Source: an uncultured virus (IMG/VR IMGVR_UViG_3300011474_000007) (lineage: Duplodnaviria > Heunggongvirae > Uroviricota > Caudoviricetes). From it: 64,000 bases of DNA. The translations under genes and the position numbers were made by a program. The stretch is taken from positions 62,001-126,000 of the IMG/VR virus record IMGVR_UViG_3300011474_000007. One strand, given 5' to 3'. Shown piece by piece: positions 12,689 to 33,900 of the stretch (its first letter is position 1; the number at the start of each line of letters is the position of its first letter). The notes beneath the pieces were generated by a model, which saw nothing but the letters and a program-made list of their open reading frames with translations, had not been told where the DNA came from and ran no database searches.

Positions 12689-12727
12689 TTTATATAAACA
12701 ATTTTAAAATTGAAGGAGGAAATAATT

Positions 12728-13729: not shown

Positions 13730-13747
13730 AATAATTTGTGACTATAT

Positions 13748-13781: not shown

Positions 13782-13800
13782 AAGGAGTGATTTTTTTAAG

Positions 13801-15148: not shown

Positions 15149-15173
15149 TTTATATAAAATAATTTGTTATAAT
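15145..15173 (+). promoter_or_regulatory. Sigma-A-type promoter for tnpB
   Basis: TTGATT-17bp-TATAAT with extended -10 TG. Confidence 0.6.
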
Positions 15174-15201
15174 ATACTTATGAAAAAGAGGTGATTAATT
15201 C

Positions 15202-16662: not shown

Positions 16663-16877
16663 AAACTATATAGGTTTAGAATCGAGCCTTATACTAACGT
16701 TAATGGTGGCATTAGTTGCTTTGTTAGTGAAAGTCTTATTGAACTATAATTAGTGCTTATATGTTGTAATTTATAATGTATTTTATAAATGAGAGTATAA
16801 GAGAAAGTTATTTAGTAAATAAGAACCTGCCAAGCTTTAGCTTGTGCAGAGGTTCAGGTAATAATATATTTGAATTT
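16663..16877 (+). ncRNA. Putative omegaRNA (right-end RNA) scaffold plus flank-derived guide
   Basis: About 195 nt between tnpB stop and right-end hairpin GAACCT...AGGTTC; guide would be the ~20 nt after 16857, by analogy with TnpB systems. Confidence 0.55.
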
Positions 16878-17009
16878 ATAGTGCCAAAAGGGGATTTCAA
16901 TAATGTAGTTGAAAAGTTGGAAACTCCAAGATTAACTAAAGAAGATTTAGATGCATGTAAAAGAATTGCTAATTTATATAAGAAACCATGTAAAAATAAT
17001 TTGAAATAA
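16858..17009 (+). pseudogene. Small antitoxin-like ORF whose 5' end appears displaced by the IS insertion
   Basis: Open frame NNIFEFIVPKGDF...LYKKPCKNNLK begins at the IS right end; the track's ATG (16776) lies inside the omegaRNA region. Confidence 0.4.
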
Positions 17010-17058
17010 TTTGAAAAAGAAAAAGAGCTGTCAAAAGATTAAGAAGGAGGATATGTAG

Positions 17059-17244
17059 ATGCCTACAATATCATTTGATAGAGATATTATTTTAAACGAA
17101 CAAGCTGGTGATAAATTGTTGGATATGTTATCAGAAGAAAGAAAAGAAAGAAAAGAAAAAATAGAAATTGAAGATATAGATATAGGAAGGAAGTTAGCTA
17201 GAGGCAAGGAATTATTAGAATCTTTAATTAGGAGGGAGATATGA
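17059..17244 (+). CDS. Small antitoxin-like protein (61 aa)
   Basis: AAGGAGG RBS; MPTISFDRDIIL N-terminus resembles small partners of GNAT toxins (recognition by eye). Confidence 0.55.
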   Translation: MPTISFDRDIILNEQAGDKLLDMLSEERKERKEKIEIEDIDIGRKLARGKELLESLIRREI

Positions 17245-17441
17245 AAAAGATAATAGATTTCACAACATACTCTCAAAATATAAGAACACAAATAGAGTCA
17301 TATTCCTTATTAGATATGATTATTGACTCAAAAAAGAGAAAAGAAGTCTATGATTATTATGATAAAAACTATCAATCTACTCCAGAAGAAGATGATATAT
17401 GCACTGAAATGAGAGGAAAATATAAGAAGGAAGATTATTAG
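17241..17441 (+). CDS. Small hypothetical protein (66 aa)
   Basis: AGGAGG RBS; ATGA overlap with previous ORF. Confidence 0.6.
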   Translation: MKKIIDFTTYSQNIRTQIESYSLLDMIIDSKKRKEVYDYYDKNYQSTPEEDDICTEMRGKYKKEDY

Positions 17442-17452
17442 GAGGCTTTATT

Positions 17453-17614
17453 GTGAAAAAAATAAGTCAACGACCTAATAACGTATTAAAATCTATAGAG
17501 ATAAGTTCTAAAGAAATACAAGATTTTAAGAAGAGCAAGAAAAAATTCAAATCATTAAAAGAATCTCAACAATTATGGGATAAATGGGTAGAAGAATCAG
17601 AAGATGAGGTATGA
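17453..17614 (+). CDS. Small antitoxin-like protein (53 aa, not in ORF track)
   Basis: AGGAGG RBS then GTG; MKKISQRPNNVLKSIEISSKEIQDFKKSKKKFKSLKESQQLWDKWVEESEDEV; resembles 18302-18460. Confidence 0.6.
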   Translation: MKKISQRPNNVLKSIEISSKEIQDFKKSKKKFKSLKESQQLWDKWVEESEDEV

Positions 17615-17617
17615 TCT

Positions 17618-17869
17618 ATGAGTGACAGATTATCTGAGTTACAAAAAGAATTGCATAATAATCTATATAAGGCTACTGTGGCTGCTGAAGAAAATACTAA
17701 AAGAAATGAAATAGGACAGGTAGTATTCTCAGAGGACGATGAAAAAGATTATGAATGTGAATGGGATGCTATTGCAGGTATATTTAATAATATTGTCAAG
17801 AAGAAGGGCTTGACTAAAGAACAAGTTAAGGACATAGTCAATAATATCAAACAGGAGATAAAGGAGTAA
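17618..17869 (+). CDS. Small antitoxin-like protein (83 aa)
   Basis: GAGGT RBS; KRNEIGQVVFSEDD...EWD motif shared with 17874-18077. Confidence 0.55.
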   Translation: MSDRLSELQKELHNNLYKATVAAEENTKRNEIGQVVFSEDDEKDYECEWDAIAGIFNNIVKKKGLTKEQVKDIVNNIKQEIKE

Positions 17870-17873
17870 TAAT

Positions 17874-18077
17874 ATGTATATAAAAAGATGGATGTGGTGT
17901 AGTCAATCATTCCCGTTCACAAAAGATAAGAAAAAGATGTACATTAGAGATAATAAAGTAAAACTAAAAGATCTATTAATGAAAGATATAAGAACTGATG
18001 ATAAAGGTAGAGCTTTATTAACTAAAGATGATGAATGGATAAAAGAAAAGGAATGGGATGAGTTATATAGAGAATAA
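17874..18077 (+). CDS. Small antitoxin-like protein (67 aa)
   Basis: AAGGAG RBS; RTDDKGRALLTKDDEW..EKEWDELY acidic/Trp C-terminus. Confidence 0.55.
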   Translation: MYIKRWMWCSQSFPFTKDKKKMYIRDNKVKLKDLLMKDIRTDDKGRALLTKDDEWIKEKEWDELYRE

Positions 18078-18096
18078 AAAAGGGGAAAATTTAAAA

Positions 18097-18240
18097 ATGA
18101 CGACACAAATAGCTGCAACATCAACATTATACGGAGAAGAAGCAAAAAAGATTATTATGGAAGCAAAGACTACACCAAGCGAAAAATTTAAAGAAAATGG
18201 TAAAAAATTAATAAAATATTTTGAGAAATTCAAGGGCTAA
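18097..18240 (+). CDS. Small antitoxin-like protein (47 aa)
   Basis: AGGGG RBS before ATG 18097; MTTQIAATSTLYGEEAKK resembles small partners of GNAT toxins. Confidence 0.55.
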   Translation: MTTQIAATSTLYGEEAKKIIMEAKTTPSEKFKENGKKLIKYFEKFKG

Positions 18241-18301
18241 GCAGGAATATAAGTAAGTATAGTTTAGTATTGTAAAAAGTTATTAAAGAAGGATGATAAT
18301 T

Positions 18302-18460
18302 ATGAGAAATATAGTTCAGAGATACTGTCTTGTTTCCGAATCTCTTGAGGAAAGTTTAAAACAAATGAAAGCTATCCGAAGTGGAAAAATTAAAAAAAAG
18401 ACATGGAAAGAATTTAAAAGAGAACTTCAAGAAGAAGATGGAGTGAAAAATCATGGATAA
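18302..18460 (+). CDS. Small antitoxin-like protein (52 aa, not in ORF track)
   Basis: AAGGATG RBS; ESLEESLKQMKAIRSGKIKKKTWKEF resembles C-termini of RelE/ParE-associated antitoxins. Confidence 0.55.
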   Translation: MRNIVQRYCLVSESLEESLKQMKAIRSGKIKKKTWKEFKRELQEEDGVKNHG

Positions 18461-18620
18461 AGTGAATAAGAACATTATGGAGAAATTTTTTGGTATCGAT
18501 GACATATAGCCAATAAAGCTAACCTCATCAGATACAATGGATAAAAATAAGAAAGGTGATTGCTTTGCAGATTGGTATGAAGAAGAACTTGCAGAAAAGT
18601 ATAGGGAATATAATAAGTGA
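18453..18620 (+). pseudogene. Small ORF with an in-frame premature TAG
   Basis: GGAGTG RBS, ATG 18453, TAG at 18507-18509; frame stays open to TGA 18620. Confidence 0.45.
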
Positions 18621-18626
18621 ACTAAG

Positions 18627-18833
18627 ATGTATAACCCATCAAAATTTTATTATAAATATTTCGTACTAGGAGTGATGAATGCTGTGAAAAGATCACTAAA
18701 TATTAACAAATTAGCAACAAAAAATATGACTACTATGTCGTCAAAAGAGGCATTAAAAGATGTTATACCTTTTCAATGGAGTGCAGAAGTACTAAATGGT
18801 AATAAAAATATTATTGTTATAAAAGGTAGGTAG
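18627..18833 (+). CDS. Small antitoxin-like protein
   Basis: AGGAG at ~18668 suggests a later start (GTG 18684); MSSKEALKDVIPFQWS motif. Confidence 0.5.
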   Translation: MYNPSKFYYKYFVLGVMNAVKRSLNINKLATKNMTTMSSKEALKDVIPFQWSAEVLNGNKNIIVIKGR

Positions 18834-18838
18834 ATTCA

Positions 18839-18961
18839 ATGATGGGAAAAAATATCTCAGTCAAAGATAACACAAAAGTTAGCATTAAAGATAAAAGTTT
18901 CACCGATATTATTAAGTGTGGTAAAAAATTAAAAGAAATCGTTGAAAAGGAAGGTTTGTAA
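18839..18961 (+). CDS. Small hypothetical protein (40 aa, not in ORF track)
   Basis: AGGTAGG RBS; C-terminus LKEIVEKEGL resembles FNNIVKKKGL of 17618-17869. Confidence 0.4.
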   Translation: MMGKNISVKDNTKVSIKDKSFTDIIKCGKKLKEIVEKEGL

Positions 18962-19202
18962 AGTAATACATGTCTTTAATAATATGATTCGCTAAAATTC
19001 TCAACAAAACTTTGTATTTTAATATACAATTTATAACTTTTAATAGCTATTCTGTCCGTATTTTTGGTACGAATTATCATCAAGTATATACCAATTTATG
19101 GTAATATATAAATATACTAATTATTTATTATATATAAACGAAATAGATTATAAGCATATTTATTAAATATTATATTTTTATTAAAGAATATTTTGTAAAA
19201 TA

Positions 19203-19231
19203 TTGATATTTTGTACTGGGAGTGGTAAAAT
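19203..19231 (+). promoter_or_regulatory. Sigma-A-type promoter of the GNAT toxin-antitoxin pair
   Basis: TTGATA-17bp-TAAAAT with extended -10 TG. Confidence 0.55.
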
Positions 19232-19313
19232 TATGAATATAAAGAAATGGACAGGCTGTGAAAAGGCAAGGGTGTATACAGCTAAAATAGTTAAAAATAA
19301 GGGGGAAGGACAT

Positions 19314-19466
19314 ATGGCAGTATCTAAAGCATATTTATCTTGTTTAGATGAGGAGGCTACTCAATTATTTAAAAAAGATATAGAATCTGCTAATTTAACA
19401 CTCACTGTAGCAAAAAAGGGGTTAGAATTATTTAAAAAACTAACTTGTGACGAAAGAGATAGCTAA
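19314..19466 (+). CDS. Putative antitoxin of the GNAT toxin (50 aa)
   Basis: GGGGAAGGA RBS before ATG 19314; small ORF 1 nt upstream of the GNAT gene. Confidence 0.55.
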   Translation: MAVSKAYLSCLDEEATQLFKKDIESANLTLTVAKKGLELFKKLTCDERDS

Positions 19467-19467
19467 T

Positions 19468-20016
19468 ATGAAATTTTTTGAAGAAAAGCTGGATGAGGAT
19501 AAACACTTTAAAGAAATTAGTGATTTTGTATGTGGTGAAAATGAATCATTGGAAATATTTTTAAAATGTCATGCAATAAAATATCATAATAACTCTCAAG
19601 GTATGACTTACATAATAAAAATGGATAATAAAATTATTGCTTTTTATACATTAAAATGTAATGCTGTTCAAGTTAAAGATACTAATGGTAAAGAGTGTAT
19701 ACCTATGGTTGAATTAGCTCGACTTGCAGTAGATTCAGATTATCAATGTAAAGGCTATGGTACAGTAATATTTCTTGGATATATGCTACCTAAAATTTTG
19801 CATGTAAGGGATCTAGTAGCAGCAAAAGCCATTATGGTGTTTGTTGAAAAAGAAGATCAAAACGCTATTAATTTCTACAAAAAAATAGGTTTTAAGATGG
19901 CTGATGAAAAAGTTCAAAATCATATAGAGGAATGGTATTCTGAGGGATGTAGTATTATGGTATTGAATTTAGATACAGCAGAAGAAATATTAAGGCAAAT
20001 ACAAGAAGTAAATTGA
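19468..20016 (+). CDS. GNAT acetyltransferase, AtaT/TacT-like toxin type
   Basis: FxCG..LxxFL N-terminus, LARLAVDSDYQCKGYG acetyl-CoA motif, AINFYKKIGF. Confidence 0.8.
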   Translation: MKFFEEKLDEDKHFKEISDFVCGENESLEIFLKCHAIKYHNNSQGMTYIIKMDNKIIAFYTLKCNAVQVKDTNGKECIPMVELARLAVDSDYQCKGYGTVIFLGYMLPKILHVRDLVAAKAIMVFVEKEDQNAINFYKKIGFKMADEKVQNHIEEWYSEGCSIMVLNLDTAEEILRQIQEVN

Positions 20017-20017
20017 A

Positions 20018-20055
20018 GACTCTTAAATATTAAATTATTTAGGAGTTTTTATTTT
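20018..20055 (+). terminator. Intrinsic terminator after the GNAT gene
   Basis: ACTCTTAAATA...TATTTAGGAGT stem followed by T-run. Confidence 0.6.
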
Positions 20056-20266
20056 GCTTAAAATTAAGAAATAAAGATATATTCATAATGTCTTTTTATT
20101 TTATAAATTATAGTTACATATACATAATTATGTTAACTAAATTTAAAGTAAACTTTGAAAGGAGGATTTTTAAATGGGTTTAAGTATTTAAACCTTGTTT
20201 ATAGGGAGAAGCATAAGCACGTAATAATGTGGACAATGCCAAGGAAAGATTTCATATGAATTAATC
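20041..20266 (+). repeat. Degenerate duplicate of the tape-measure 5' region joined to an intron-3 5' remnant
   Basis: 20041-20204 resembles 20787-20941 (RBS and first codons, stop at codon 6); 20206-20266 resembles 24886-24966. Confidence 0.7.
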
Positions 20267-20282
20267 TCAATAATCATAAATA

Positions 20283-20750
20283 TTGTATGAAACTCCAATA
20301 TATGATAAAATTATACAAGAAAGACTATGGAATTGGAGGCATTTTTATGAAAAAAATAAGTTTTTAAAAGCGGTATTATTATGTTTAAGTATTATTTTTT
20401 GTTTAGGATTGTTTGTAGGGTGTGAATCCGCAGAAGAAGCAGGAATGAGACAATTTAAAGAAGAACAGGAGGAAGCTAAAAAACCTGAAAATAAGAAAAA
20501 GAGCATATATTATGGTGTTCAGAAAGAAGTTAAAAATAAATTAAAAGCACCATCTACCGCGGAATTTCCTATATATGATGAATCTTTTGTTGAACAGGTT
20601 GACGATACACATTATACGGTTAATTGTTATGTAGATGCTGAAAATGGTTTCGGTGCAAAACTTCGTTCTAACTATAGTTGTGATATAGAGTATGAATATG
20701 AAGATGATAGTTCTTATACTATAAAAAATCTTATAATAGATCAAAATTAA
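20283..20750 (+). CDS. Lipoprotein, paralog of the intron-3 cargo; natural start ATG 20347 is frameshifted by an A7 run
   Basis: Lipobox LFVGC; KLKAPSTAEFP...YVDAENGFGA; GGAGG RBS at 20335; A7 after ATG versus A8 in the paralog; the track's TTG start coincides with the -35 box. Confidence 0.65.
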   Translation: MYETPIYDKIIQERLWNWRHFYEKNKFLKAVLLCLSIIFCLGLFVGCESAEEAGMRQFKEEQEEAKKPENKKKSIYYGVQKEVKNKLKAPSTAEFPIYDESFVEQVDDTHYTVNCYVDAENGFGAKLRSNYSCDIEYEYEDDSSYTIKNLIIDQN

Positions 20751-20767
20751 AGAAAATATAGTGTAAA

Positions 20768-20803
20768 AGCTTCTAACAGAATAGTTAGGAGTTTTTTATT
20801 TTT
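20768..20803 (+). terminator. Intrinsic terminator after the lipoprotein gene
   Basis: GCTTCTAAC...GTTAGGAGT stem followed by T-run. Confidence 0.6.
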
Positions 20804-20912
20804 ACATAAAATTAATGTAAGAAAGGCATTTTTACAATGTCTTTTTTATTTTGTTTATTATAGGTTATATATATAAATTTAAAGTAAACTTTTTTGAAAG
20901 GAGGAATTTTAA

Positions 20913-22379
20913 ATGGCTTTAAGTATTCAAACCTCGTTTACACTGGAAGATTTTAATAGCTTAAATACTAAAGTCCAAAATCTTTTAAAACAAGTAAGTG
21001 AATCAAGTAAAATAAAACTAGATTTTTCAGATGGAATGTCATTAGATAAGATGCAACAACAAATAAATAAATTACAGCAGGAAATTATCAATGCTAGTAA
21101 ACAGTCAAGTAAAGCTGTTGCATCGTCATTTAGTAAAACAAATTCACAGTTTGAACAACAAATAAAAAATATAGAAAAATACTTAAAAACATTAGGCTCT
21201 AATGTAAATGTAAAAGCAATAACAAATGATTATGGTGGAATAACTGGTGCAATTGCTAAGTATAAAAATGAAGCAGGTAAGGTTATAGAAAAGAATTATG
21301 AATTAGGTGAGTCATTAAAAAAGGTTGATAAGGATGGAAAATACGTTCAGAAATTAAAACTAGTTAATGATTCAACTCTGAAAGATCAAGAGAAAATTAT
21401 ACAATTACTTGAAAAAGAAAGAAAAAAAATAGAGGAAGTTACAGGTGCTATAGCTAAATTAAAAACTCATAAAGATGGTAAAGGAATATTAAGAAGTGCA
21501 AGTATAAGTTATAGTGATGATGATAATAAAAAAATTCAGCAATTATATAAAATAAAAGATAATATTCAGGCTAAGGAAAATACTATAAATAAAGGTTTGT
21601 CTTTTGAAAGAACAGGAACTAATACTATAGATGATATAAAACAAAGTATAAAAACTTTGGAACAATATCAGAAAGCTATAGATAGACTCAACGAGAAGAA
21701 TATAAGTTTAGGTGATGGAAGTCAAAGTCAATTGTTTATTAAGAATCTTCAAGAGGCGCAAACATTAATAGATAGGACAAAATCTTCTGGTGAATCTATG
21801 AGCAGAAGTATCCAAAAGAATATTGATATTTTAATTAGAAAAATGAATCTGGAAAATAAGACAATTAAGCAAACAAGCGATGAAATGAAAAAGAAACAAA
21901 AAATAATGAAAGATGCTCCTGTAGCAATACAAAGCTATGAGAATAAAATAAACAAATTAAAAAATACATATGGAAAATTGGTTAAAGAAGCTAATTTGTC
22001 AAAGTTAAGGAAAGAAATGGCTAAGTTAGCTCATTCAAAAGATCCTGAAGAGTATTCTAGACAATTAAAAATCATAAAAAATGAATATGATAAATTAGAG
22101 AATTCTGTAAATGGTAGTAGTAAAAAAGGTAAGAATGGAATTTTATCGACTATTGGTGAAGCTATAACTAAAATACCTGTTTTGATAAGTGCAGCTGATG
22201 CTTGGATGGAAGCTATTAACAAGGTCAAAGAAGGGGTTAGTTTCATAGCTGATTTAGATAAAGCTCAGACCAATATCTCAATGATAACAGGTATGAATAA
22301 AAGCCAAGTTTCTGATTTAACTGATGAATATAGTAAACTAGCAGGGGAGTTACATACGACTACCAAAGAAATGATGGGT
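20913..22379 (+). CDS. Tail tape measure protein, exon 1
   Basis: AAGGAGG RBS; helical ORF entering a TP901-type core (LDKAQTNISMITG); ends in GGT at the predicted 5' splice site. Confidence 0.85.
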
Positions 22380-22691
22380 GAATAAAGCACTATCGCCCAT
22401 ATAAAACCTCGTGAACCTATAAATATAGGGTGTGCATTTAACATTAAGTTCAAATAGGAAATGATTTGTTAATAAATGTGCTAACAGGGAAAGAGAAATC
22501 TAATCCTGTGCGAAATTATATTTATTTTTAAATATATAATCGTCAAACGACTATCGAAACCATAGCTATAGTGTAAATAGGATTGCTATAGTGAGTAAGG
22601 AAGTAGAGTACATTTAAGGTGAAATTCCTTATTTGGAAGTGCGAGGGCTTAACCTAATAAGCATGATATAGTCTATTAATAATTATTAATG
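22380..22691 (+). ncRNA. Group I intron 1 (no ORF, 312 nt)
   Basis: P1 AUGGGU/GCCCAU with U-G at the splice site; P3 22407-22412/22641-22646; P7 GACUA (22549)/UAGUC (22669); P9 hairpin; terminal G 22691; P10 GCACU/GGUGC. Confidence 0.9.
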
Positions 22692-23077
22692 GGTGCAGAA
22701 GAATTCCTTAGAGCCGGTAGGAGCGTTGAAGAAACTAAAGGATTATTAAAAGCTTCAACTATAGGTGCAGCAATATCTGGACAAAGTAATGAGGCTGTAT
22801 CTGAACAATTAATTGCAATAACTAACGGTTTCAGTAACATGGTTGCAAAAGCACAGAAAGAAGGAAAAAGTTATGAGAGCGTTGTAATGCATGTTATAGA
22901 TACTATTTCAACATTAGATAATGCTTCTGCTACTTCATTCCAAGAAGTGGCAACTGCCATGATGAGAACATCATCTTCAGCACAAATGGCAGGAGTAAGC
23001 TTTGAGACTTTAGCGTCTTATGTAGCTACAGTTAGTGCTACAACAAGGCGGTCTAGCGAAAGCATTGGTGAATCCTT
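22692..23077 (+). CDS. Tail tape measure protein, exon 2
   Basis: GAEEFLRAG...VIDTISTLDN...SIGESF tape-measure core motifs; in frame after splicing. Confidence 0.85.
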
Positions 23078-23191
23078 TAATGGTGGAGGCTTAGTGGCAT
23101 AATACATAAACCACTATAGAAAATTTTCTCTAATATACGGCGAAACTCCAGAGATGGACAACGCCTTGGAAGACAATTAATATAAAATAAT

Positions 23192-23219
23192 TTGACAAAA
23201 TAAGAAAAAGTGTTAAAAT
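23192..23219 (+). promoter_or_regulatory. Internal promoter for the intron endonuclease
   Basis: TTGACA-16bp-TAAAAT with extended -10 TG. Confidence 0.6.
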
Positions 23220-23270
23220 AAAGATAGTTAATATAAAATAATTTAAAAAAGTAAGAAAGGCGGATCTATT

Positions 23271-24389
23271 GTGTATAAAATAAAAAAGGATAACCCCACA
23301 CAATTTAAGATATCATCTGATGAATCTTATTGGATAGGTATAACATCAAAAGGAGATGAGTTTTTCTTTAATGGAGATAATGATGTAATATCATATGTAA
23401 AATCTTGCAATTGGAGAAAAAGAAAAGATGGATATTTTCAAAACTATAAAGGAGAAAGGATAAATAGGGTTGTAGCTAAAGTTATTGATTCTTCTTATGT
23501 AGTAGACCATATAAATAACAATCCTTCAGACAATAGGGTTCAGAATCTAAGAGTAATAACGAGAGCGAAGAACACTAGAAATAAATCCACTAATAAAACA
23601 CATGGTATAGTAGGGTTATATAAAAAAGGTAATAAGTATTATGGAATATTAATGGTCGAAGGTATCAATATTTGTACAAAATTTAAAAATAAAAATGAAG
23701 CTTTAATAGATTTATTAATAGCACAAAAACATTTTGGATATTTGCATAATGAAAACTTATATTATTTAATAGAAAACATAGATAAAAAAACACAATGTAA
23801 AGTAATTGAATGTGTGGAAGAAAAATTAAAAAAATATAAGGCTAGAAAGCCAAAAAAAAATAAATATATTTTATCAGAGGACGGTAAATATTATGTAGTT
23901 TTATGTAATGAAATTGATAATAAAAATAGTTTTAAAATATCTGTAGAAGATAAAGAACTGGTTGAAGAATATTGTTGGAGTATGCATAAATTAAAAAATA
24001 ACAAATATTATATTCATCAATCAAAAGGAGGATGTTTTTATATTCATAGATATTTATATGGGTTGAGAGATGAAAAATATATGAATTATTATGTTGACCA
24101 TATAAATGGAGATAGTTTAGATAATAGAAGAGAGAACTTGATTATCACAGATAAAAAAGGCAATAATACAAATATAATAAGTAAAAAAGGGTATCATAAA
24201 ACAAAAAATGGAAAATATCGAGCTGCCATATCTATAGGAGAATATAATAATAGGTTGTCAAAGGTATGTGATATAGAAGAAGAAGCTAGAAAATGGTATC
24301 TTGATAAAAAACAAGAACAAATGAAAAAAAGAAAGACATGGAAAAGTAAAGAAGAATTAGATTTATATTTATTATCAAAAACAGGTTAG
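23271..24389 (+). CDS. HNH homing endonuclease with two HNH plus AP2-like units
   Basis: VDHINNNPSDNRVQNL and VDHINGDSLDNRRENL motifs, each followed by an AP2-like segment. Confidence 0.85.
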   Translation: MYKIKKDNPTQFKISSDESYWIGITSKGDEFFFNGDNDVISYVKSCNWRKRKDGYFQNYKGERINRVVAKVIDSSYVVDHINNNPSDNRVQNLRVITRAKNTRNKSTNKTHGIVGLYKKGNKYYGILMVEGINICTKFKNKNEALIDLLIAQKHFGYLHNENLYYLIENIDKKTQCKVIECVEEKLKKYKARKPKKNKYILSEDGKYYVVLCNEIDNKNSFKISVEDKELVEEYCWSMHKLKNNKYYIHQSKGGCFYIHRYLYGLRDEKYMNYYVDHINGDSLDNRRENLIITDKKGNNTNIISKKGYHKTKNGKYRAAISIGEYNNRLSKVCDIEEEARKWYLDKKQEQMKKRKTWKSKEELDLYLLSKTG

Positions 24390-24627
24390 TTTTAACACTT
24401 CTAATTTGTTTTTATTTGTTAATTGTCACCAACAACGACTTAACGAGAAAAGTTTATTTTTTATAAGATAAACATGTACAAGTCTAAACGTCACGCTATA
24501 ATCTAATAATGAAACGTGAGAATTTTGGTCGGTGTGAAATAATCACCTAAAGAAGTACCAAAATCGCTATAACAGAATAATTTGTTATAGTCAGTAGCTT
24601 GTTTTTGCAAGTGAAAGTAATAGTAAG

Positions 24628-24850
24628 CAAAACCATATTTGCTAGATTCCAAGATATAAAACAAGGTGTAGATGTCCAAGATGGAGGAAGCATATCTAAT
24701 GTTGAAGAATCGCTAAACAAAGTTGGAATAGCAATAAGAAAAGATAAGACTCATTTTAAGGAATTTTCACAAATTGTTGATGAACTTAAACCGAAATGGA
24801 AGGAATTGGATGATTTATCTAAAGCCGATATCTCTAAAAGTCTGGCAGGT
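24628..24850 (+). CDS. Tail tape measure protein, exon 3
   Basis: KTIFARFQD...VEESLNKVGI...IVDELKPKW...SLAG motifs; in frame after splicing. Confidence 0.85.
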
Positions 24851-25010
24851 AAAATATGTGCCTGAGTATACAGTAATGTATACCTGAGAAGCAAACCATA
24901 TCGGGGGAACCCTGACCATGTAATGATGAAGGCAATCCCGAGGAAAGATTTTATGTGAATTAATTTGATAAAATTATATATTTATAATTATATTTTAATA
25001 ATCATAAATA

Positions 25011-25039
25011 TTGTATAAAACTCCAAAATATGATAAAAT
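25011..25039 (+). promoter_or_regulatory. Promoter of the intron-borne lipoprotein gene
   Basis: TTGTAT-17bp-TAAAAT with extended -10 TG; conserved in the copy at 20283-20311. Confidence 0.6.
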
Positions 25040-25074
25040 CATAATAGCAAAGCTATGGAATTGGAGGCATTTTT

Positions 25075-25437
25075 ATGAAAAAAAATAAGTTTTTAAAAAC
25101 GGTATTATTATGTGTAAGTATTATTTTTTGTTTAGGAATTTTTGTTGGTTGTAGCGAATCAGAAGAAGATAAAGCTAGAGCATATAAGTTTGGCATTTAT
25201 AAAAATACAACAAAACTAATAGAAGGTAAGTTAAAATCTCCATCAACAGCTAAATTTCAAGAGTTCGATGAAAAGTTGGTTAAAGATTTAGGTGGAAATC
25301 AATATAAAGTTTCAGGATATGTCGATTCTGAGAACGGGTTTGGTGCAAATATTCGTTCTAATTGGCATTGTACTGTTACAATAGAAGGAGAAGGAGAAGA
25401 TAAAACAATTGAAAGTAATGATATAGTTATTGAATAA
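25075..25437 (+). CDS. Lipoprotein of unknown function encoded inside intron 3
   Basis: Signal peptide with lipobox IFVGC; KLKSPSTAKF...GYVDSENGFGA; GGAGG RBS. Confidence 0.8.
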   Translation: MKKNKFLKTVLLCVSIIFCLGIFVGCSESEEDKARAYKFGIYKNTTKLIEGKLKSPSTAKFQEFDEKLVKDLGGNQYKVSGYVDSENGFGANIRSNWHCTVTIEGEGEDKTIESNDIVIE

Positions 25438-25458
25438 AATATATAATATATACGTCTT

Positions 25459-25497
25459 AAACTCTTAACAAGTTAAAGTTAAGAGTTTTTATTTTTT
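25459..25497 (+). terminator. Intrinsic terminator inside intron 3
   Basis: AAACTCTTAAC...GTTAAGAGTTT stem followed by TTATTTTTT. Confidence 0.65.
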
Positions 25498-25708
25498 AAA
25501 AAATTAATTCATATAGAATATCCGTAACGACTAGTACGTTTGCCATCCTATATAAATAATAGGATGAACATAGAGTCTAAACTATATGGAAACATATAGA
25601 GAAGTGGTCGGTGTGAAATAATCACCTAAAGAAGTACCATTTCCGCTATAGCAAAATAATTTGTTATAGTCAGTAGCCTTGTTATTATAGGTGAAAGTAA
25701 TAGAGTTG

Positions 25709-28700
25709 ACAGATCAAAGGGAAAACTTTTTGGTTTTAATGAATAATTTAGAAACAACAAGTGATTTATTACAAAAAGTAAAAGAATCAGCAGGCAATTC
25801 TAAAATAAAATTTGATGATAATGCTAGTGAATCTCTTGATGCAAAAGTTAAAAATTTTAAACATGCTTGGGAAGAACTCTATAGGACTTTAATCTCTAGT
25901 GATGCTTTAAAAGCAATAGTAGCAACAGGAACAAAATTAATAGGTGTTCTAGATACAATTGTTAATTCAAGTAAAGGAGTTAAATTAAGCTTTTTAGTAT
26001 TACTTCCTATAATTTTACATATGGTTAAAAATTTTAAACTTTTGATGTTAACAATAATGTCAGGAGAAAAAATAAAATTAGTTGATGTGATTTTTGGAGA
26101 TTTATTTGGCAGAATGTCAAGTGGTATCACAATTGTAGATAGACTCAAAAGTTCATTTAAGGTTCTTAAGTTAGCACTATCTTCATTATTAACAACGCCA
26201 CAAGGTTTAATGTTTTTAGCTGTAGCAACAGCAATAGGTGTAGCAACAGCGGCAGTAATTAAACATGCAAACCATCAAAAGAAACTAAGAGAAGAGAATG
26301 ACAAACTAAAGCAAAGTTATGATGATTTGAAGGCTGCAATGTCATCAAATGACAAAGAAGGTATAAAAAATGCTTCAGAAAATCCACAAAAAGCACAAAG
26401 TGAACTCCAAGAATTGATAAAGAAAAGAGCAAAACTAAATAAGGAAATGGAAAGCGCACCTACTATGAGAGAGGGCGCAACTATACATATTAATTCACAA
26501 TTTAAAGAAACTGAACAAAGAATAAAAGAAATAACCAAAGCTCTCAAAGATAATGGTTACACAGTTGATGAAATCACTGGAAAGGTAAAAGAATTAACGG
26601 AAGCTAGTTTAAGAGCAACAAATCTTGATATGATAGATACTATTAAAGAAACAGGAGAGTCTGAAATAAAGAATAAAGATTCTATTGTGGAATTAGGAGA
26701 TGAATATTTTAGATTAGCTTCGATTCAAAATAAAAATAAAGAAGTAAACCAAAAGTTAACCGATGTCTCAAATGAGCTAAATGGTAAAGTGAAAGGGCTA
26801 ATTGTAACAAAGGATAAGGATGGAAATGTAACAGTTAAAAATACTGGTTTGTTAGCTAAGGAGATAGAAGTCCTTCAAACAGAGGGATTAACTGTAAATA
26901 AGCTAACTCAAATTAAGTTAGAAGCTGGAAAAAGTTCAGCAGAAGTTCAAATCGGTATGACAAAGGTTACTTACCAAGAAGCAAGAAGAAGAATGCAAAT
27001 ATTAGATGAAGAAGCAAAGACCTTAGAAAAAGTTAGTAATCTAACTGATCCAAATGGTACTATGGAAAAAATTACTGGAATGAAAAATCCATTTGGAAAA
27101 GCATATGATTTTAATAGAAGTGAAGCAGCAGAAATAAAAAGTCAAATTGAGGCTATAGATAAAATATATAATGAAGCAAAATCTTCACTTGATGACTTAC
27201 CAGACAAAAATTCTGTACCAAATTTTGCACCTAATCCTGATGAAACAAAGAAAAGTACAGAAGCTACAAAAGAAAACACAGGGGAGACAGACAAGAATAG
27301 AGAAGCCGTAAATAAAGCTAGAGAATCCATAAAACAATATGAATTAGCATTAAAATCACTAGAAATGCAAATGACAAAAAATAATATTGCACTAGGAAGA
27401 CTTTACGAACATAGTGATAGTTATATAAATAAACTAAAAGAAAAACAAAATTTAATTAAACAAGAAATTGCATTAAATAAACAACAAATAGCTACTAATG
27501 GAAAATTAGCTAATTCATTAGGCGCAGTAGGTGGAAGTTATGCAAGTGGTATGGGTAATAGTATTGGTGAACAAGTTGTAAGAAATGCACAACAATATTT
27601 AGGAAGACCATATAAATGGGGAGGAAGTAGCCCAGCTGAAAATTTTGACTGTTCTGGATTAGTTCAATATGTATATAAGCAAGTAGGAATTTCCTTGAAT
27701 AGGACTACATATGACCAAGTAAAACAAGGAACAGCTGTATCTAAAAATCAATTACAAGTAGGCGATGCTGTTTTCTTCGGTAGCCCATCAGCACCACATC
27801 ATGTAGGAATATATATGGGGAATGGAAAGTATATACATTCACCAAAAACAGGTGATGTTATAAAAGTTTCTAACTTAAATAGTAGAAGTGATTATGCTAC
27901 TGCCAGAAGGTATGCAAGTGGAGGAAGTAGTTATCGAACAACTTCATCTAATTATAGTGGAAAATATGCTAGTTATATAAATGACGCAGCTAGTAAATAT
28001 GGTGTATCTTCTGCTTTAATTGCAGCAATCATAAAAGCAGAATCAGATTTTAATCCTAATGCTCGTTCTAATGAAGGAGCTATGGGACTAATGCAACTTA
28101 TGCCAGTTAATGTAAGAGAATTTGGAGTAAGAAATCCTTATGACCCACAACAAAGTATTATGGGTGGAACACAAGAAATATCTAAATACTTAAAGAAATA
28201 TAATGGTAATTTAGATTTAGCTTTAGCCGCTTATAATGCAGGTATGGGTAGTGTAGCTAAAGCGGGTGGAGTCCCAAATTACACCAAGGATTATATATCC
28301 AAAGTTAAAAAGTACATGAAAGGCTATGGTGGAAGCGAATCCTCTATCCATTCAACAATAGATGAACAAATGGACTTAATTGGAAAGTCAATGGATTTAG
28401 AAAAGAAAAACCTTGAACTCCAAGAAGAATTAAACAAGATAAATATTCAAATTCTTGAAGCCAAATTGGGTCAATATGATGATAGAGTTAAATCCATTGA
28501 TAGAACGTTAACTCAATTAAGAACAGATGTTGATTTAGCAGGAAAGAATGATACAACATATATAAATTACTTGTTAAGAATAGATGAATATAGTAATAAG
28601 AAACTTAATACTTTGAAAGAAAAAAGAGCATTTTTAGAAAAAGAAATGAAATCTAATATTTATGACGCAAAAACTTTACAAATGATGCGAGAAAAGAATT

Positions 28701-30877
28701 CAGATTTAGGTACCGAAATGCTTAATATGTTAAAAAGTATTAAAGAATTAGGATATGAAATAGCTACAGCAAGATATGAAGCCGTACAACAAATTTATAA
28801 AGACAATATTGAACTACTTAATAATGAATTAGAACGGCTTTCAACTGAAGAAAATAAAAATCTTAAATCAATGATTGCTTTAAGACAACAAATGATTGGA
28901 CAAGATGAAGAAAATATTAAAAGATTGACTAATCTAATAAAAGAATTAAATGCAGAATCTTATAAGGGTAATAAACCTTACTTATTAGATAAAATAGAGG
29001 AATACACTAAAGAATTAGATAGAGCAAATACGGAATTGACTAAACACAAGAAAGAACTTGAAAGCGTAAAAGATACTTTTAATAGTTTAATAGAATCTAT
29101 AGAAGATAAAGTTAAACAAGCCATTCAAAAAGTCAATGAAGAATACAAGAAAAATTCAGAGAAAAGAAGAAAGCTATTTGATGAAGCTATTGATAAGCAA
29201 GTAGAAAAAATAGAAGAAGCCCGAAGAAAGCTCGATAAAAACGAAACCGCACAGAATGATTATGAAAAAATTATGGAGATTCAAGAAAAGATAAATAGAC
29301 TTGATTTAAATGATTCCATAGAAGCAAAAAAACAAAGATCTGAATTAGAAAAAGAATTAAGAAATGCACAAAAAGACCAACGTTCTCATGAATTGAATTA
29401 TGAAATTGAAGAAAGAAAGAAAAGACTAACTAATGCAAAAGATGAATACGGAAAACTTAGTAGTGAATATGACAATAAATTAAGTGAAAGTTTTGAAGAT
29501 GATAAGCTGACTCTTGAAGCTAAACAAGCTTTACTAAATGGCTTTATTGTTGATTTGAATGGAAATGTTATTAACTTAGAAAAAGCATTAACTACATTAG
29601 AAGATAAGACAGGAAAAGGATTAAGCAGCACAGGTAATAAAATAAAAAAAGAATTAATTGATAATTTACATACAGTACAAGATATATTAAAAGAATTTGG
29701 AACTTTAGATACTACAAAAATAGAGTTTCAAAAGAAACCAATTATCAATGTATATGGTGCTGGAATAGACATAGAAAATGCTAAAAACATATTAGGAATA
29801 GATGGATATAACTACATTGATACAAAGATGATAGACCATAGTAAAATCAAATTAGGAGAAAATGATATAGTTCTAGGTGCAAAAGGCACTCATAATGGTA
29901 TTAGTAGAGATGATTTAGGTGGTGCTACTAGGTTGGGTGGCAGCAACAGATATGATACTGCCGCTATTATTCAATTATATAAAGATATACAAGATGGTAA
30001 AGTAACTCCAGTAAATGGAGTGGTGTATGGTAGTGGGCAAGATTTAGAGAATGCAATGAAATGGTTAGCTCCTTTAGGTTATAAGTTTGTTGATACAAGT
30101 AAAATAAACCCTAGAACAATTAGATTTACTCAAAACGACTTAATAGTTGGAGGAACTGGCGCTAGAGGTGGCGTTCCTTTTGATGTTAACGGTGTTAAAA
30201 GATTAGGTGGAATAACAAGATTTGATACAGATAAAATCATAGGAGATTATGCAAAAGCACAATTAGAAACAAGAATAAATGAAGCTTACCGTCAAACAGA
30301 TAAAAGAGTTGGTAGAGTATATGGAACAGGTATAGATTTAATAAATGCTAAGAAATATTTAAGTAAACAAGGATATGATTTTGTTGATACCGATTCTGTA
30401 ATTGATAAAGTTTTAAGCACAAATGATATTGTTGTAGGCGGTCAAATGAAAGGCAAGGAAAATATCTATAATAGCGGTGCTAGATGGCTATACGGAAAAG
30501 ATAGACATGAAACTGCTAACTTGATAAATGAATTTGCTAGATATAATAACATTAGAGGGTTTAGTACAGGCGGCGTGGTAGATTATACAGGTCTGGCAAT
30601 GGTTCATGGTAGCAACAATCCTGAATTAGTATTAAATAATCAACAAGTAGTACAATTACATAACTTTATTAAAGGACTTCCAAACACTGCTTATAATCCT
30701 AATATGAGAAGATTTGGGAATTCAAGTGTAAAAAATATTAGTAACAAGAATACAGAATCTAATCAAGTATATAATCAGTATGATATAAAACTAATAGTTG
30801 AGGGTAATTTACAAGGAAATGAAAGAGAAGCTAATATGTTTGCCAATAAGATAGTAGATATAATGAAAAGAAAATAA
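25709..30877 (+). CDS. Tail tape measure protein, exon 4 (NlpC/P60 peptidase, lytic transglycosylase, three CWB2-like repeats)
   Basis: YKWGG...FDCSGL...HVGIY (NlpC/P60); KAESDFNPNA...GAMGLMQLMP...AAYNAG (SLT); hydrophobic helices; RLGGxxR(Y/F)DT repeats. Confidence 0.9.
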   Translation, partial: TDQRENFLVLMNNLETTSDLLQKVKESAGNSKIKFDDNASESLDAKVKNFKHAWEELYRTLISSDALKAIVATGTKLIGVLDTIVNSSKGVKLSFLVLLPIILHMVKNFKLLMLTIMSGEKIKLVDVIFGDLFGRMSSGITIVDRLKSSFKVLKLALSSLLTTPQGLMFLAVATAIGVATAAVIKHANHQKKLREENDKLKQSYDDLKAAMSSNDKEGIKNASENPQKAQSELQELIKKRAKLNKEMESAPTMREGATIHINSQFKETEQRIKEITKALKDNGYTVDEITGKVKELTEASLRATNLDMIDTIKETGESEIKNKDSIVELGDEYFRLASIQNKNKEVNQKLTDVSNELNGKVKGLIVTKDKDGNVTVKNTGLLAKEIEVLQTEGLTVNKLTQIKLEAGKSSAEVQIGMTKVTYQEARRRMQILDEEAKTLEKVSNLTDPNGTMEKITGMKNPFGKAYDFNRSEAAEIKSQIEAIDKIYNEAKSSLDDLPDKNSVPNFAPNPDETKKSTEATKENTGETDKNREAVNKARESIKQYELALKSLEMQMTKNNIALGRLYEHSDSYINKLKEKQNLIKQEIALNKQQIATNGKLANSLGAVGGSYASGMGNSIGEQVVRNAQQYLGRPYKWGGSSPAENFDCSGLVQYVYKQVGISLNRTTYDQVKQGTAVSKNQLQVGDAVFFGSPSAPHHVGIYMGNGKYIHSPKTGDVIKVSNLNSRSDYATARRYASGGSSYRTTSSNYSGKYASYINDAASKYGVSSALIAAIIKAESDFNPNARSNEGAMGLMQLMPVNVREFGVRNPYDPQQSIMGGTQEISKYLKKYNGNLDLALAAYNAGMGSVAKAGGVPNYTKDYISKVKKYMKGYGGSESSIHSTIDEQMDLIGKSMDLEKKNLELQEELNKINIQILEAKLGQYDDRVKSIDRTLTQLRTDVDLAGKNDTTYINYLLRIDEYSNKKLNTLKEKRAFLEKEMKSNIYDAKTLQMMREKNSDLGTEMLNMLKSIKELGYEIATARYEAVQQIYKDNIELLNNELERLSTEENKNLKSMIALRQQMIGQDEENIKRLTNLIKELNAESYKGNKPYLLDKIEEYTKELDRANTELTKHKKELESVKDTFNSLIESIEDKVKQAIQKVNEEYKKNSEKRRKLFDEAIDKQVEKIEEARRKLDKNETAQNDYEKIMEIQEKINRLDLNDSIEAKKQRSELEKELRNAQKDQRSHELNYEIEERKKRLTNAKDEYGKLSSEYDNKLSESFEDDKLTLEAKQALLNGFIVDLNGNVINLEKALTTLEDKTGKGLSSTGNKIKKELIDNLHTVQDILKEFGTLDTTKIEFQKKPIINVYGAGIDIENAKNILGIDGYNYIDTKMIDHSKIKLGENDIVLGAKGTHNGISRDDLGGATRLGGSNRYDTAAIIQLYKDIQDGKVTPVNGVVYGSGQDLENAMKWLAPLGYKFVDTSKINPRTIRFTQNDLIVGGTGARGGVPFDVNGVKRLGGITRFDTDKIIGDYAKAQLETRINEAYRQTDKRVGRVYGTGIDLINAKKYLSKQGYDFVDTDSVIDKVLSTNDIVVGGQMKGKENIYNSGARWLYGKDRHETANLINEFARYNNIRGFSTGGVVDYTGLAMVHGSNNPELVLNNQQVVQLHNFIKGLPNTAYNPNMRRFGNSSVKNISNKNTESNQVYNQYDIKLIVEGNLQGNEREANMFANKIVDIMKRK

Positions 30878-30885
30878 TTTGTTAA

Positions 30886-30920
30886 AGACACTATGGAGAA
30901 TTCTATAGTGTCTTACTTTT
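30886..30920 (+). terminator. Hairpin / terminator after the tape measure gene
   Basis: AAGACACTATGGA...TCTATAGTGTCTT inverted repeat followed by ACTTTT. Confidence 0.55.
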
Positions 30921-30934
30921 AAGGTGGTGATTTT

Positions 30935-33900
30935 TTGATTAGAGCAAGTGAAATAATATGGTTTAATGGTCATAGCAGTGAAGAGTTTGGATTAATAAAC
31001 GCCAATATTGACAATGATGGATTCTTAGACGAACCTTTTTTAGCAGAGAGAAAGTTAAATGTAGAAAGAATTAAATATCAACCTAAAGCTTATTTTGATA
31101 GCGTTGAAGAACAAGAAAAGATATTTGAATTAAAATTAGTTTTTAAAGATAGAGTTAATATGAATAAACAAAAGCTAAGAGATGTAGCTAAATGGTTAAA
31201 TGCAACAGATGGATACAAGGAATTATGGTTTAGTGAAGATTGTGAACTAGATGAGAATGGTGGTTATGATATTAATAAACCAACTAGAATATATTTTGCA
31301 ATTGTTGAGGGTACTTCTAATTTACATCATGCTTGTTTACCACAAGGATATATAACAATTAGATTCAAAACTAACTCACCATATTGTTATTCTCCTTTAA
31401 AAACAACTGTAAAATATAAATTGGGTGAAGGTGATAGAGTTGTCGTATTTAATGAGGGAGATTTGATTTATCGCCCAGAAGTTAGTATAAAAAGTCTAGT
31501 AGAAAATCAAACTATTCAATTGAAAAGCAATACTTTTGAACCTGATAATTATATAGATTACATTAATAATGAAAGTAAAAATAAATTTGATTTCATATTT
31601 AAACAAGGAGAAAAGGCAAAAGGAAGCTTTGATTTAGATGGAACCGCTTATGATGGTGAAACATTTAAATTAGGGAATAAAACTTATGAGTTTGATTTAG
31701 GAGATAATAAAACTAAAAACAAATATGATGTAAATAACATATTAGTTCCTGTTAAGGGAGGATCGAAAGCTCATAATACATTAAATTTTGAAAAAGCTAT
31801 CGTAACGGATGGAAGTACGGTAACTATAGGTGATCAAATTTTTGAATTCGATAATAATAATATTTATGCTCCATCAAATGTGCAAGTAGACGTTTCAGAT
31901 TATTGTGATAGGGCAAAAGGTACTTTACATTTAAATTCTAATTTAATGCCTAATCAAACAATGAAAATAGATGAAACAACTTATACTATGGTAGGTGGCA
32001 CTAATGAATTTATTATAAAAATGACAGATCATTTATTAAGCGATGGATTAGAAACAAATATAGTTGTTAAAAATGACAAGATTAATACAAAACAAGATAA
32101 TGTAGTAGTTACCACTCCTAAATTTAAGAATATAGATAAATGTTTAGTAAGAAATGTAACTAAGAATCCTTCAGATCTAGGTATAAGAAAAGTGAAATAC
32201 TTAGATAAAGATTTTGTTATGGTTTTATGGGACGGTGAAAGTGATGAAGATTATCAAGATTTAATAGAAGATGTAGGTATAAATGATAGGGTTATTATTA
32301 AGTTTGATAAAGCCATAGATAAGAATACAGTTACCGAAGATACAATTGTAGTAAAAGATTTAGAAGGTAATAAAATACCTGTTTTATTTGATTTCGGACA
32401 AGCATCTGATATGGGTAAAATAGTAGGTGTAATACCTAAAAATAGTTATGACTATGACTCAGAATATACAATACACATAACAAAGGGAGTTAAGAATGAA
32501 AAAGGAGTAAATATTAAAAACATCAGAAAGATAAAAATACATACACGAAAAGAACATTATGAAACAGAAAATGAAGTTTTTAATAATATAAGTCCAGTAA
32601 AAGCGTTTACTTTTAATTCCCCACATAAATTTAAAAAGGAAACTGTAACAAAAGAAAATATTTATGTATTAGATGATAAAAATGAAAAAGTAGAGATAAA
32701 TTTAACGGTAACTGATGCAGGTAAATCATTGATAGTTCAGCCTGTAACAAAATATGAACAAGGAAAAACTTATAAATTATATTTTACAACAAAAGTATTA
32801 GATATAAATAATATGAGTGTCGTAAGAAATGAGAAGGTAGTGACATTTACAACATCTACAAAAAATAATGTAGGAGTTATAGATACGGATTGTGATGATT
32901 ATTATAATGATGTACCTATAGATAAGCCTTTTACTATACCATTTCCTAAAAGATTAAATTTAAATCAAATAAATTATAATTATGGATTGGTAGATTTAAG
33001 AGATAGGGATAATAAACAAATTGCTGTTTTTTATTGTTATAAAACTAATAATACAAAATTATTAGAAATTACGCCGAGCGAAAATTTAAAATATGGTACT
33101 ACATATTTCTTATATATTAGTAAAATGGTTCAATATGATGACCAAAGTGGCTATATTGATGAGCCATTAAAAATAAGAATTAACACTATGAAAGATCCAG
33201 CTTTACAAAATAATAAGAGTAACAATGATGTAGAAGAAAGCCAAGAAAACACTGTGAATACTAATTTTTATAATGTAGCTACTAACAAAGAATTTAATGT
33301 TTCTTTTAATGCATCTGTTGTAGATATAAGAAATGGTATATATATCAAAAATTCTAAAGAACAATTCGTAGATTGTTTTACTAAAATAAGTCAAACTGGA
33401 AATGGAATAGATATTTTCCCTAGTCCTGTTTGGGAAATGGATGAAAAGTATTATGTATACGGAAATGAGAATATAAAATTATCTAAGAAACCTAGAATTT
33501 TTGCAGGAGATTCTCCACCAGATGGAAACGGTAATAAAGGTGATTATGCTAATGCAAAAGAGATATTTGAACCTTTAGGATTGCAGGTAATTAAAATTGA
33601 TGGATGGAAAATATATGGTGGCGATATATATGATAAAGAAGGAAAGAAAATTTTTATAGATAAACGAGATATTCTTGTAGGCGGAAATTTTAGAATAACT
33701 AAAGATGATTATAATGATGATGGAACTCTTAAAGATGGTACTATAATTTATAATATTCCATTATCTGTTTTTGCCAACGGAGCAACAAGGATTTCAGGGG
33801 TAAATAGAGTAGAAACTAAGAAAAAAATGTTAGAATATAAGGAAACTATTAAGGATAGATCTTATGTAAAAAGAAGCATGTATAAAACAGATACTTTAAT

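Follow-up and report, generated by a model that had tools for sequence, protein, structure and literature searches.

A predicted group I intron in a phage tape-measure gene with a lipoprotein cassette in its P6 loop

Intron 3 of the tape-measure gene

We focus here on positions 24851-25708 of a 64,000-nt stretch of DNA from an uncultured tailed virus, termed the window (bases 62001-126000 of the 157.5-kb IMG/VR virus record IMGVR_UViG_3300011474_000007, which is linear and has a completeness estimate of 79%). The gene for the tail tape-measure protein (TMP) in this window consists of four exons and three predicted group I introns. The third of these, intron 3 at 24851-25708, holds in the loop of its P6 stem a gene for a 120-aa lipoprotein together with a promoter-like element, a ribosome-binding site and an intrinsic terminator. 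An initial annotation of the interval had read it as a group I intron serving as a vehicle for a lipoprotein moron in place of a homing endonuclease. Judged by exon contiguity, a full set of core helices and covariation, the interval is a group I intron, and the boundaries first proposed for it are confirmed. The parts of the locus that bear on this are as follows.

24628..24850, + strand: TMP exon 3, 74 codons; matches phrog_4211 788-840 and aligns to nt 901-1122 of the phage Perkons TMP
24851..25708, + strand: intron 3, group I; identified by exon contiguity, helices, compensatory pairs and an Rfam match of 30.8 bits on the 3' half
24846..24864, + strand: P1, exon CAGGU with guide GCCUG, 5/5 pairs with a U.G at the 5' splice site, kept in the minimum-free-energy (MFE) fold; P10 partner UGU at 24857-24859
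24865..24964, + strand: 5' half of the core (P2, P3 5' strand, P4-P5, P6 5' strand), from a script check of helices
24965..25502, + strand: P6 loop, 538 nt, closed by a 19-bp stem and with the cassette inside
25011..25039, + strand: promoter-like element, TTGTAT, 17 nt, TGaTAAAAT, read from the sequence and of putative function
25063..25067, + strand: GGAGG ribosome-binding site, 7 nt 5' of the ATG, read from the sequence
25075..25437, + strand: lipoprotein gene, 120 aa, lipobox Cys26; phrog_13160 at E 1.2e-17, with orthologs, substitution ratios and an AlphaFold (AF2) model
25459..25497, + strand: intrinsic terminator, 11-bp stem and T run; hairpin 25459-25488, -11.9 kcal/mol
25503..25708, + strand: 3' half of the intron (P6 3' strand, P7, P3', P8, P7', P9, P9.1, P9.2, terminal G), from helix check, Rfam and contigs
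25709..30877, + strand: TMP exon 4, NlpC/P60 and SLT domains (Pfam); phrog_4211 1938-2621, and the Perkons TMP from nt 1123

First of all, the exons fit together across the insert. Joined, the four give 7,245 nt and one 2,414-aa open reading frame (ORF) with zero internal stops, and they lie collinear on a single TMP profile, phrog_4211 (179-648, 659-773, 788-840 and 1938-2621). The TMP gene of Psychrobacillus phage Perkons is uninterrupted, and tblastn places exon 3 residues 1-74 on its nt 901-1122 and exon 4 residues 1-282 on its nt 1123-1920, with no gap between the two; the exons thus abut exactly, which makes the coordinates of intron 3 exact to the base. The exon 2/exon 3 junction, ESF/KTIF, is likewise unbroken in relatives without intron 2.

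Second, the interval contains the helices of a group I ribozyme, all of them canonical: P2 (6/6 pairs), P3 (6/6, GCAAAC/GUUUGC), P4 (6/6, UCGGGG/UCCCGA), P8 (7/7), a short P5, P9 and two more 3' hairpins. P7, GACU/AGUC, lies inside classical ACGACUA...GAGUCU elements, P10 forms 3/3 pairs (ACA/UGU), and the terminal G is at 25708. The P6 stem pairs 24942-24964 with 25503-25523 over 19 bp. When the 869-nt precursor is folded without constraints, the MFE structure retains P1, P2, all 19 P6 pairs, P7, P8 and the terminator hairpin. A short-range search with Rfam Intron_gpI (RF00028) matches the 3' half only, at 30.8 bits and E 7.8e-6, below the gathering score of 50 bits; the 538-nt loop divides the model. 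The ORF-less intron at the same site in one relative (G005) scores 32.5 bits across the full model.

Third, the predicted structure has been kept through sequence change. The intron at the same TMP site of pNPD1_1, a Clostridium botulinum phage-plasmid, has a core 86% identical to that of intron 3 over 312 aligned positions in both core halves. Comparison of the 78 pairs finds 64 unchanged, four with one-sided changes that still pair, seven with double changes that still pair, one broken and two gapped. The seven double changes are located in P3, P5, P6, P9, both P9.1 helices and P9.2, and shifted controls (n=6) yielded 0-1.

Finally, identical pieces of the locus are found in error-free contigs from three runs in three studies (X1, X2 and X3). 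The 3' end of the cassette is bridged into the intron core by one contig from each run (X2 25361-25545, X3 25451-25682, X1 25494-25820), and exon 3 into intron 3 by contigs of X1 and X2; the AT-rich, low-complexity 5' junction at 24968-25007 is bridged by no matching contig. Run X1 may be the source sample of the record.

The lipoprotein cassette and its relatives

As the initial annotation had it, the P6 loop contains a GGAGG ribosome-binding site, an ORF for a 120-aa protein with a lipobox, and a terminator; the loop is 538 nt long and closed by the 19-bp stem. The segment 24987-25438 matches a free-standing gene in CP022401 at 82.6% identity. This match marks out the extent of the cassette, and no more than ~22 nt at the 5' side of the loop is then other sequence. 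Both hexamers of the promoter-like element are invariant, and most of the ~50 nt around them identical, across three cassette copies in three different contexts; the terminator scan found one site where 0.3 were expected. In the manner of a moron, the cassette has its own terminator and varies in position among syntenic relatives. Expression of the cassette in carrier cells is plausible, relatives being ~200-kb plasmids of C. botulinum isolates. No RNA run was listed as containing the locus, and the metatranscriptome run of the same sample as X1 gave 0 matching contigs, neither of which bears on expression.

The lipoprotein gene is the sole ORF of at least 60 aa within 24851-25708, so this interval has no ORF for a homing endonuclease, nor, as an IStron would, one for an IS200/IS605-type transposase. 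The TnpB-like ORF of the window is 8 kb away. It encodes 486 aa, resembles TnpB/IS605 OrfB (phrog_506, E 5.5e-49; NCBIfam guided_TnpB below cutoff) and lies at 15202-16662 amid virion genes.

The protein begins with a basic MKKNKFLK segment and a hydrophobic helix (residues 4-21), followed by FVGC, which we take to be a lipobox, with Cys26; G25 and C26 are invariant in 12/12 aligned family members. It matches phrog_13160, function unassigned, at E 1.2e-17, as well as three other PHROGs, and the family is seen in 13 phage records. An HMMER search of 1.84 billion representatives gave 4,529 clusters with a cutoff of E <= 0.001, of which 121 remain at E <= 1e-10 and 0 at E <= 1e-30. The family is very large and uncharacterised. 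Among 21 longer homologs scanned, eight carry zinc-ribbon families, five other N-terminal modules and eight nothing known; this variety suggests that the conserved C-terminal 70 residues are a widespread anchored surface domain.

The AlphaFold model (pLDDT 89, pTM 0.72) has one long helix packed on a four-stranded sheet. Foldseek of this model gave 0 matches in the PDB at E <= 0.001 and seven at that threshold among viral models (BFVD), all of uncharacterised phage proteins, one of them named lipoprotein. A PDB profile search had 0 matches at E <= 1, Pfam gave no family and PADLOC 0 families, NCBIfam gave lipoprotein-type matches below cutoff only, and an Atlas search (scores 0.84-0.87) gave no named family. 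A scan of genome contigs with the lipoprotein returned only two weak, unrelated-looking loci. The protein is thus predicted to be a lipid-anchored helix-plus-sheet (cystatin/NTF2-like) domain and not a nuclease, maturase or transposase; the structure search and the Pfam result both agree with the initial annotation on that point. Pairwise ratios of nonsynonymous to synonymous substitution (dN/dS) among three orthologs are 0.15-0.33, which indicates that the gene, the intron-borne copy included, is under purifying selection.

The closest homologs are 75-82% identical; they come from C. botulinum and C. sporogenes contigs of 130-220 kb, where their annotation is 'hypothetical protein'. Five C. 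botulinum plasmids of 197-215 kb encode them as well, from which we conclude that the element is a phage-plasmid; in the explanation favoured below, it is one of ~200 kb from Clostridium (botulinum/sporogenes group). In all five of the IMG/VR relatives found to encode the protein, the gene is free-standing, 2-4 kb upstream of the TMP gene. The free-standing gene of CP022401 belongs to an accessory island, where its neighbours include HicA and PIN toxin genes as well as a second paralog.

What fills TMP site 3 differs among relatives, as a survey of homologous introns for other P6 cargo brought out. In six of six IMG/VR relatives the site holds an ORF-less, 371-nt intron whose ends match intron 3 and whose core does not; all six keep intron 1 and lack intron 2. 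In pNPD1_1, on the other hand, site 3 holds a 1,293-nt intron with the same core as that of the window. The P6 of this intron has a 22-bp stem, and in its loop lies an endonuclease-type ORF of 306 aa that matches HNH_repeat (E 2e-12) and an HNH-endonuclease PHROG. That ORF and the HNH ORF of intron 2 are unrelated (E 0.5), and the movement of one endonuclease between introns 2 and 3 was rejected on these grounds. With unrelated ORFs in intron 3 of pNPD1_1 and in introns 2 and 3 of the window, one loop position in this lineage has thus held three unrelated cargoes.

Further searches for the intron gave little. A pattern scan with GGTCGGTGTGAAATAATCACC had 0 matches in viral contigs, a 20-nt P7 pattern found only a pNPD1_1-sized record there, and a 19-nt P7 pattern in metagenome contigs found one unrelated GC-rich contig, a chance match. 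Both blastn of 24400-26300 against the phage collection and tblastn of the exon 4 N-terminus against phages had zero matches.

The comparison also bears on how these introns arose. Introns 2 and 3 share a 3' domain with 92% identity over 73 nt (24526-24598 and 25605-25677), and their 5' halves and P6 cargo differ. Since introns 2 and 3 have only this domain in common, and the relatives' site-3 intron shares only its extreme ends with intron 3, the TMP introns are, on sequence comparison, mosaics built by recombination.

Interpretation and alternatives

The explanation that we favour, with moderate confidence, is that a group I intron in the TMP gene of a phage-plasmid has had its endonuclease slot filled by a self-contained accessory lipoprotein cassette. 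During late transcription, the ribozyme would fold around the loop, the 19-bp P6 stem uniting its two halves, and the whole insert would be excised; the 2,414-aa TMP would thus still be made. In carrier cells, the cassette would be transcribed independently, from the sigma-A-like promoter to the terminator. Its product, to go by the in silico signal peptide and fold, would cross the membrane and stay tethered to its outer face by a lipid anchor, with the small helix-plus-sheet domain exposed. Most likely, recombination put the cassette in the place of an endonuclease gene, and intron 3 itself would now be immobile. Our best guess for the lipoprotein is an accessory role that acts on the envelope; that this role is specifically one of exclusion or defence is possible yet rather doubtful.

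Several results weigh against this explanation and should be set beside it. First, Rfam finds no Intron_gpI in the window at the gathering score (0 matches) nor in 19000-32000 at E <= 10, and none of the short-range matches, at 20.5-32.5 bits, reaches the gathering score. Second, P3 and P4 are missing from the MFE fold of the 869-nt precursor, P3 because it crosses P7 and cannot coexist with it there. The structure used in the comparison with pNPD1_1 was itself derived from the window sequence, which favours its pairing percentage (75/78 paired) over the controls and leaves the double-change count unaffected. Third, the promoter consensus scan returned 9 sites against 7.3 +/- 2.8 expected, not an enrichment, and 25011-25039 is below its threshold and unlisted; of the sigma-A promoter originally called there, what stands is a sequence whose hexamers are conserved in three copies, and what does not is its recognition by that scan. 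Fourth, the intron contains an intrinsic terminator in sense orientation, at which some late TMP transcripts should end before they reach exon 4; the site would thus carry a cost, and the idea of a neutral landing pad is not supported. TMP is needed in few copies per tail, which may make the cost of the terminator affordable. Fifth, the best fold matches of the lipoprotein model, to the cystatin fold (Z 8.3) and to NTF2/VirB8-like proteins (Z 7.8), are at Z values (Z 7-8) that the search tool itself gives as typical of chance-level best matches. Finally, the lipoprotein-in-intron layout occurs in one of the eight TMP loci read at sequence level (the present phage, the six IMG/VR relatives and pNPD1_1), and intron 3 has no endonuclease, both of which speak against calling the intron a vehicle.

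The initial annotation had gone further and tied the lipoprotein to the TMP by function, as an Ltp-like superinfection-exclusion factor that acts on an incoming TMP and is linked to its own TMP allele. We regard this as unlikely. The protein is phage-borne and predicted to be surface-anchored, its family is common in phages (phrog_13160 and three further PHROGs, 13 phage records, seven BFVD models), relatives keep the gene in an accessory island with toxin-antitoxin genes, and Ltp reportedly targets the TMP, all of which would suit such a role. However, the PDB profile search at E <= 1 was empty, and Ltp is not among the structure matches listed, which does not exclude it. Furthermore, the model has one helix and a four-stranded sheet, whereas Ltp is all-helical, and PADLOC gave no match. 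The gene is outside the TMP in relatives, so linkage is not a trait of the family; with no sequence or fold similarity to Ltp in the searches run, only position ties the protein to the TMP.

It is less likely still that intron 3 is a decaying relic in a defective element, with splicing impaired or transcription stopped at the terminator and no full-length TMP made. The sense-strand terminator and the missing endonuclease would fit such decay, as would the linear record at 79% completeness and a frameshift in the paralogous lipoprotein gene upstream of the TMP gene. Against it, the four exons are open and in frame across 7,245 nt, every one of the 78 pairs is canonical in the window sequence, the differences from pNPD1_1 are compensated, and the same sequence is found in three runs from three studies.

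That there is no intron at all, the TMP being truly split into separate genes and the lipoprotein gene an ordinary intergenic moron, is very improbable. RefSeq does list the exons of CP022401 and pNPD1_1 as separate coding sequences (CDSs), but the exon ends meet codon to codon when aligned to an uninterrupted homolog, neither exon 3 nor junction-proximal exon 4 has its own start codon or ribosome-binding site at the junction, and the covariation of the ribozyme core, with the sub-threshold Rfam matches, argues for an intron. Least probable of all is an assembly chimera, with the cassette misjoined to the intron across AT-rich repeats, for although the 5' junction at 24968-25007 is low-complexity and unbridged and the paralogous cassette 4.7 kb upstream might mislead an assembler, error-free contigs of X1, X2 and X3 span the terminator into the intron 3' core and the P6 strands that flank the cassette are complementary over 19 bp.

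The preferred explanation, of a cassette in the endonuclease slot, could be extended in a bolder direction that we think unlikely. Intron 2 lies 223 bp upstream of intron 3, and its HNH endonuclease is absent in six of six relatives. Where a relative without intron 2 is co-resident or co-infecting, this enzyme might cut its TMP allele; repair templated by the present phage could then co-convert exon 3 and the whole of intron 3 with its lipoprotein cassette, and the two introns together would behave as a gene drive for an accessory envelope gene, spreading it from one phage-plasmid to another. If so, accessory genes in general might be sheltered and delivered by TMP introns, a route so far unrecognised.

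The usual picture of a phage group I intron is of a selfish element whose only cargo is its own homing endonuclease. In the td, nrdB and sunY-type introns of phage T4, the endonuclease ORF is looped out from a peripheral stem, has its own expression signals and gives the intron mobility. The ORF of intron 3 is likewise looped out of a peripheral stem such that the core can still fold; its cargo, on the other hand, is a predicted membrane lipoprotein, and no mobility gene is present. Morons of the HK97 gp15 type occupy a slot upstream of the TMP gene, with their own promoter and terminator, encode an envelope protein and vary in presence and absence. The relatives keep the same lipoprotein gene in that upstream slot, whereas here one copy is inside the TMP coding sequence, where it would be tolerated only if the intron splices.

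A published parallel is in prophages of the Bacillus cereus group, whose TMP genes are described as having several group I introns at different sites, TMP-IVS1/2/3, with HNH or GIY-YIG genes or nothing as cargo (Tourasse and Kolsto 2008, PMC2504315). What that account outlines is shared here in several respects: there are several introns per TMP gene, homologous introns carry unrelated endonuclease genes or none, and different cores occur at one site with the P1 and peripheral parts conserved, the pattern seen between the window and the six relatives at site 3. The loop described here differs in being a lipoprotein expression cassette. Organellar group I introns, as reviewed, encode rps3, aminotransferases and N-acetyltransferases (PMC8393795), and they too house a non-endonuclease gene; these genes are described as expressed from the host transcript, whereas the present one is in a phage and has its own promoter-like and terminator elements. 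IStrons combine a group I intron with an IS200/IS605 element (PMC4227781). In both cases the ribozyme would make an insertion in coding sequence harmless, but the IStron passenger is characterised there as a transposase that gives mobility and the passenger here is a lipoprotein. Ltp of Streptococcus thermophilus phage TP-J34, described as a prophage-encoded surface lipoprotein (PMC3952083), would be like the present protein in kind, with no detectable relation in sequence or fold in the searches run. For the intron endonuclease gp210 of PhiPA3, it is proposed that intron cargo may aid phage competition (PMC11620839); cargo may benefit the carrier in both systems, there through the endonuclease itself as that work presents it, and here in a way unrelated to DNA cleavage. 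Among the papers that the literature searches listed, none describes a group I intron of a phage with an accessory cassette as its cargo, be it for a lipoprotein or for another protein.

If the preferred explanation holds, a well-formed intron has in its endonuclease slot an ordinary accessory gene that is maintained by selection and brings its own expression signals. A natural comparison set exists at a single TMP codon, where the intron is empty in six relatives, loaded with an endonuclease gene in pNPD1_1 and loaded with the lipoprotein gene here. If the intron splices, ribozymes would let accessory genes sit within essential, highly conserved genes, where they are hard to delete. Furthermore, a large uncharacterised family of small surface domains, with 4,529 representative clusters, would be a recurrent phage cargo. 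Genes housed in this way would be missed by annotators, and RefSeq lists the TMPs of the plasmids CP022401 and CP013295 as fragments. In both plasmids the TMP exons appear as separate CDSs with the introns unannotated, under the names 'hypothetical protein', 'phage tail tape measure protein', 'NlpC/P60 family protein' and 'transglycosylase SLT domain-containing protein'.

Neighbouring features

The remaining parts of the TMP locus, and a second lipoprotein cassette just upstream of it, are listed below.

20200..20830, + strand: second, paralogous lipoprotein cassette; repeats D1, D3 and D6, 51% aa identity
20913..22379, + strand: TMP exon 1, an ORF; phrog_4211 179-648
22380..22691, + strand: intron 1, ORF-less group I; P1 AUGGGU/GCCCAU, P7 GACUA/UAGUC, Rfam Intron_gpI 20.5 bits, E 0.004
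22692..23077, + strand: TMP exon 2, PhageMin_Tail (Pfam PF10145, E 1.1e-11)
23078..24627, + strand: intron 2, group I with an HNH ORF in the P6 loop; helices P1-P8 found in the expected order
23271-24389, + strand: intron 2 ORF, 372 aa; HNH_3, E 1.3e-15

Across the six IMG/VR relatives, intron 1 is found in 6/6 and intron 2 in 0/6. In the annotation of Clostridium phage c-st (NC_007581), the 'N-ter part' and the 'middle part' of the TMP are two separate CDSs, and ~370 nt directly ahead of the stretch that matches exon 3 are left as a gap, which is probably an unannotated intron at site 2.

The upstream cassette is preceded by a decayed copy (20200-20265, 77% identity) of the 5' half of P3-P6 of intron 3, in which P4 is no longer complementary. 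About 115 nt of the region upstream of the TMP gene, together with its first nine codons, is duplicated around the cassette (20087-20201 and 20836-20940). The duplication and the decayed intron 3 fragment point to past recombination between the intron-borne cassette and the TMP start. In the paralog gene itself (20347-20750), the ATG and the rest of the coding sequence are in different frames: the tract that follows the start codon (20350-20356) is A7, where the intron copy has A8, and translation from that ATG reads MKKISF and then a stop. Contigs of X2 and X3 show a 1-nt gap at this tract and those of X1 do not, so the tract length differs between samples, which could be phase variation or homopolymer error.

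Just upstream of the paralogous cassette, at 19203-20016, a small ORF overlaps the gene for a 189-aa GNAT acetyltransferase, an arrangement that resembles GNAT-type toxin-antitoxin pairs.

Introns similar to intron 1 occur elsewhere in the genome, outside the window, on the minus strand of region 1-19000 (~2330-3265, 3603-3754, 9282-9689 and 17132-17442). Two of these are in nrdD, one is in a PolIII-alpha/PHP gene and one adjoins an AAA_24 gene; one of the nrdD introns has a 223-aa GIY-YIG ORF at 2400-3071 in the loop equivalent to P6. There are thus at least seven introns in these 157 kb, and the lipoprotein is the sole non-endonuclease cargo among them.

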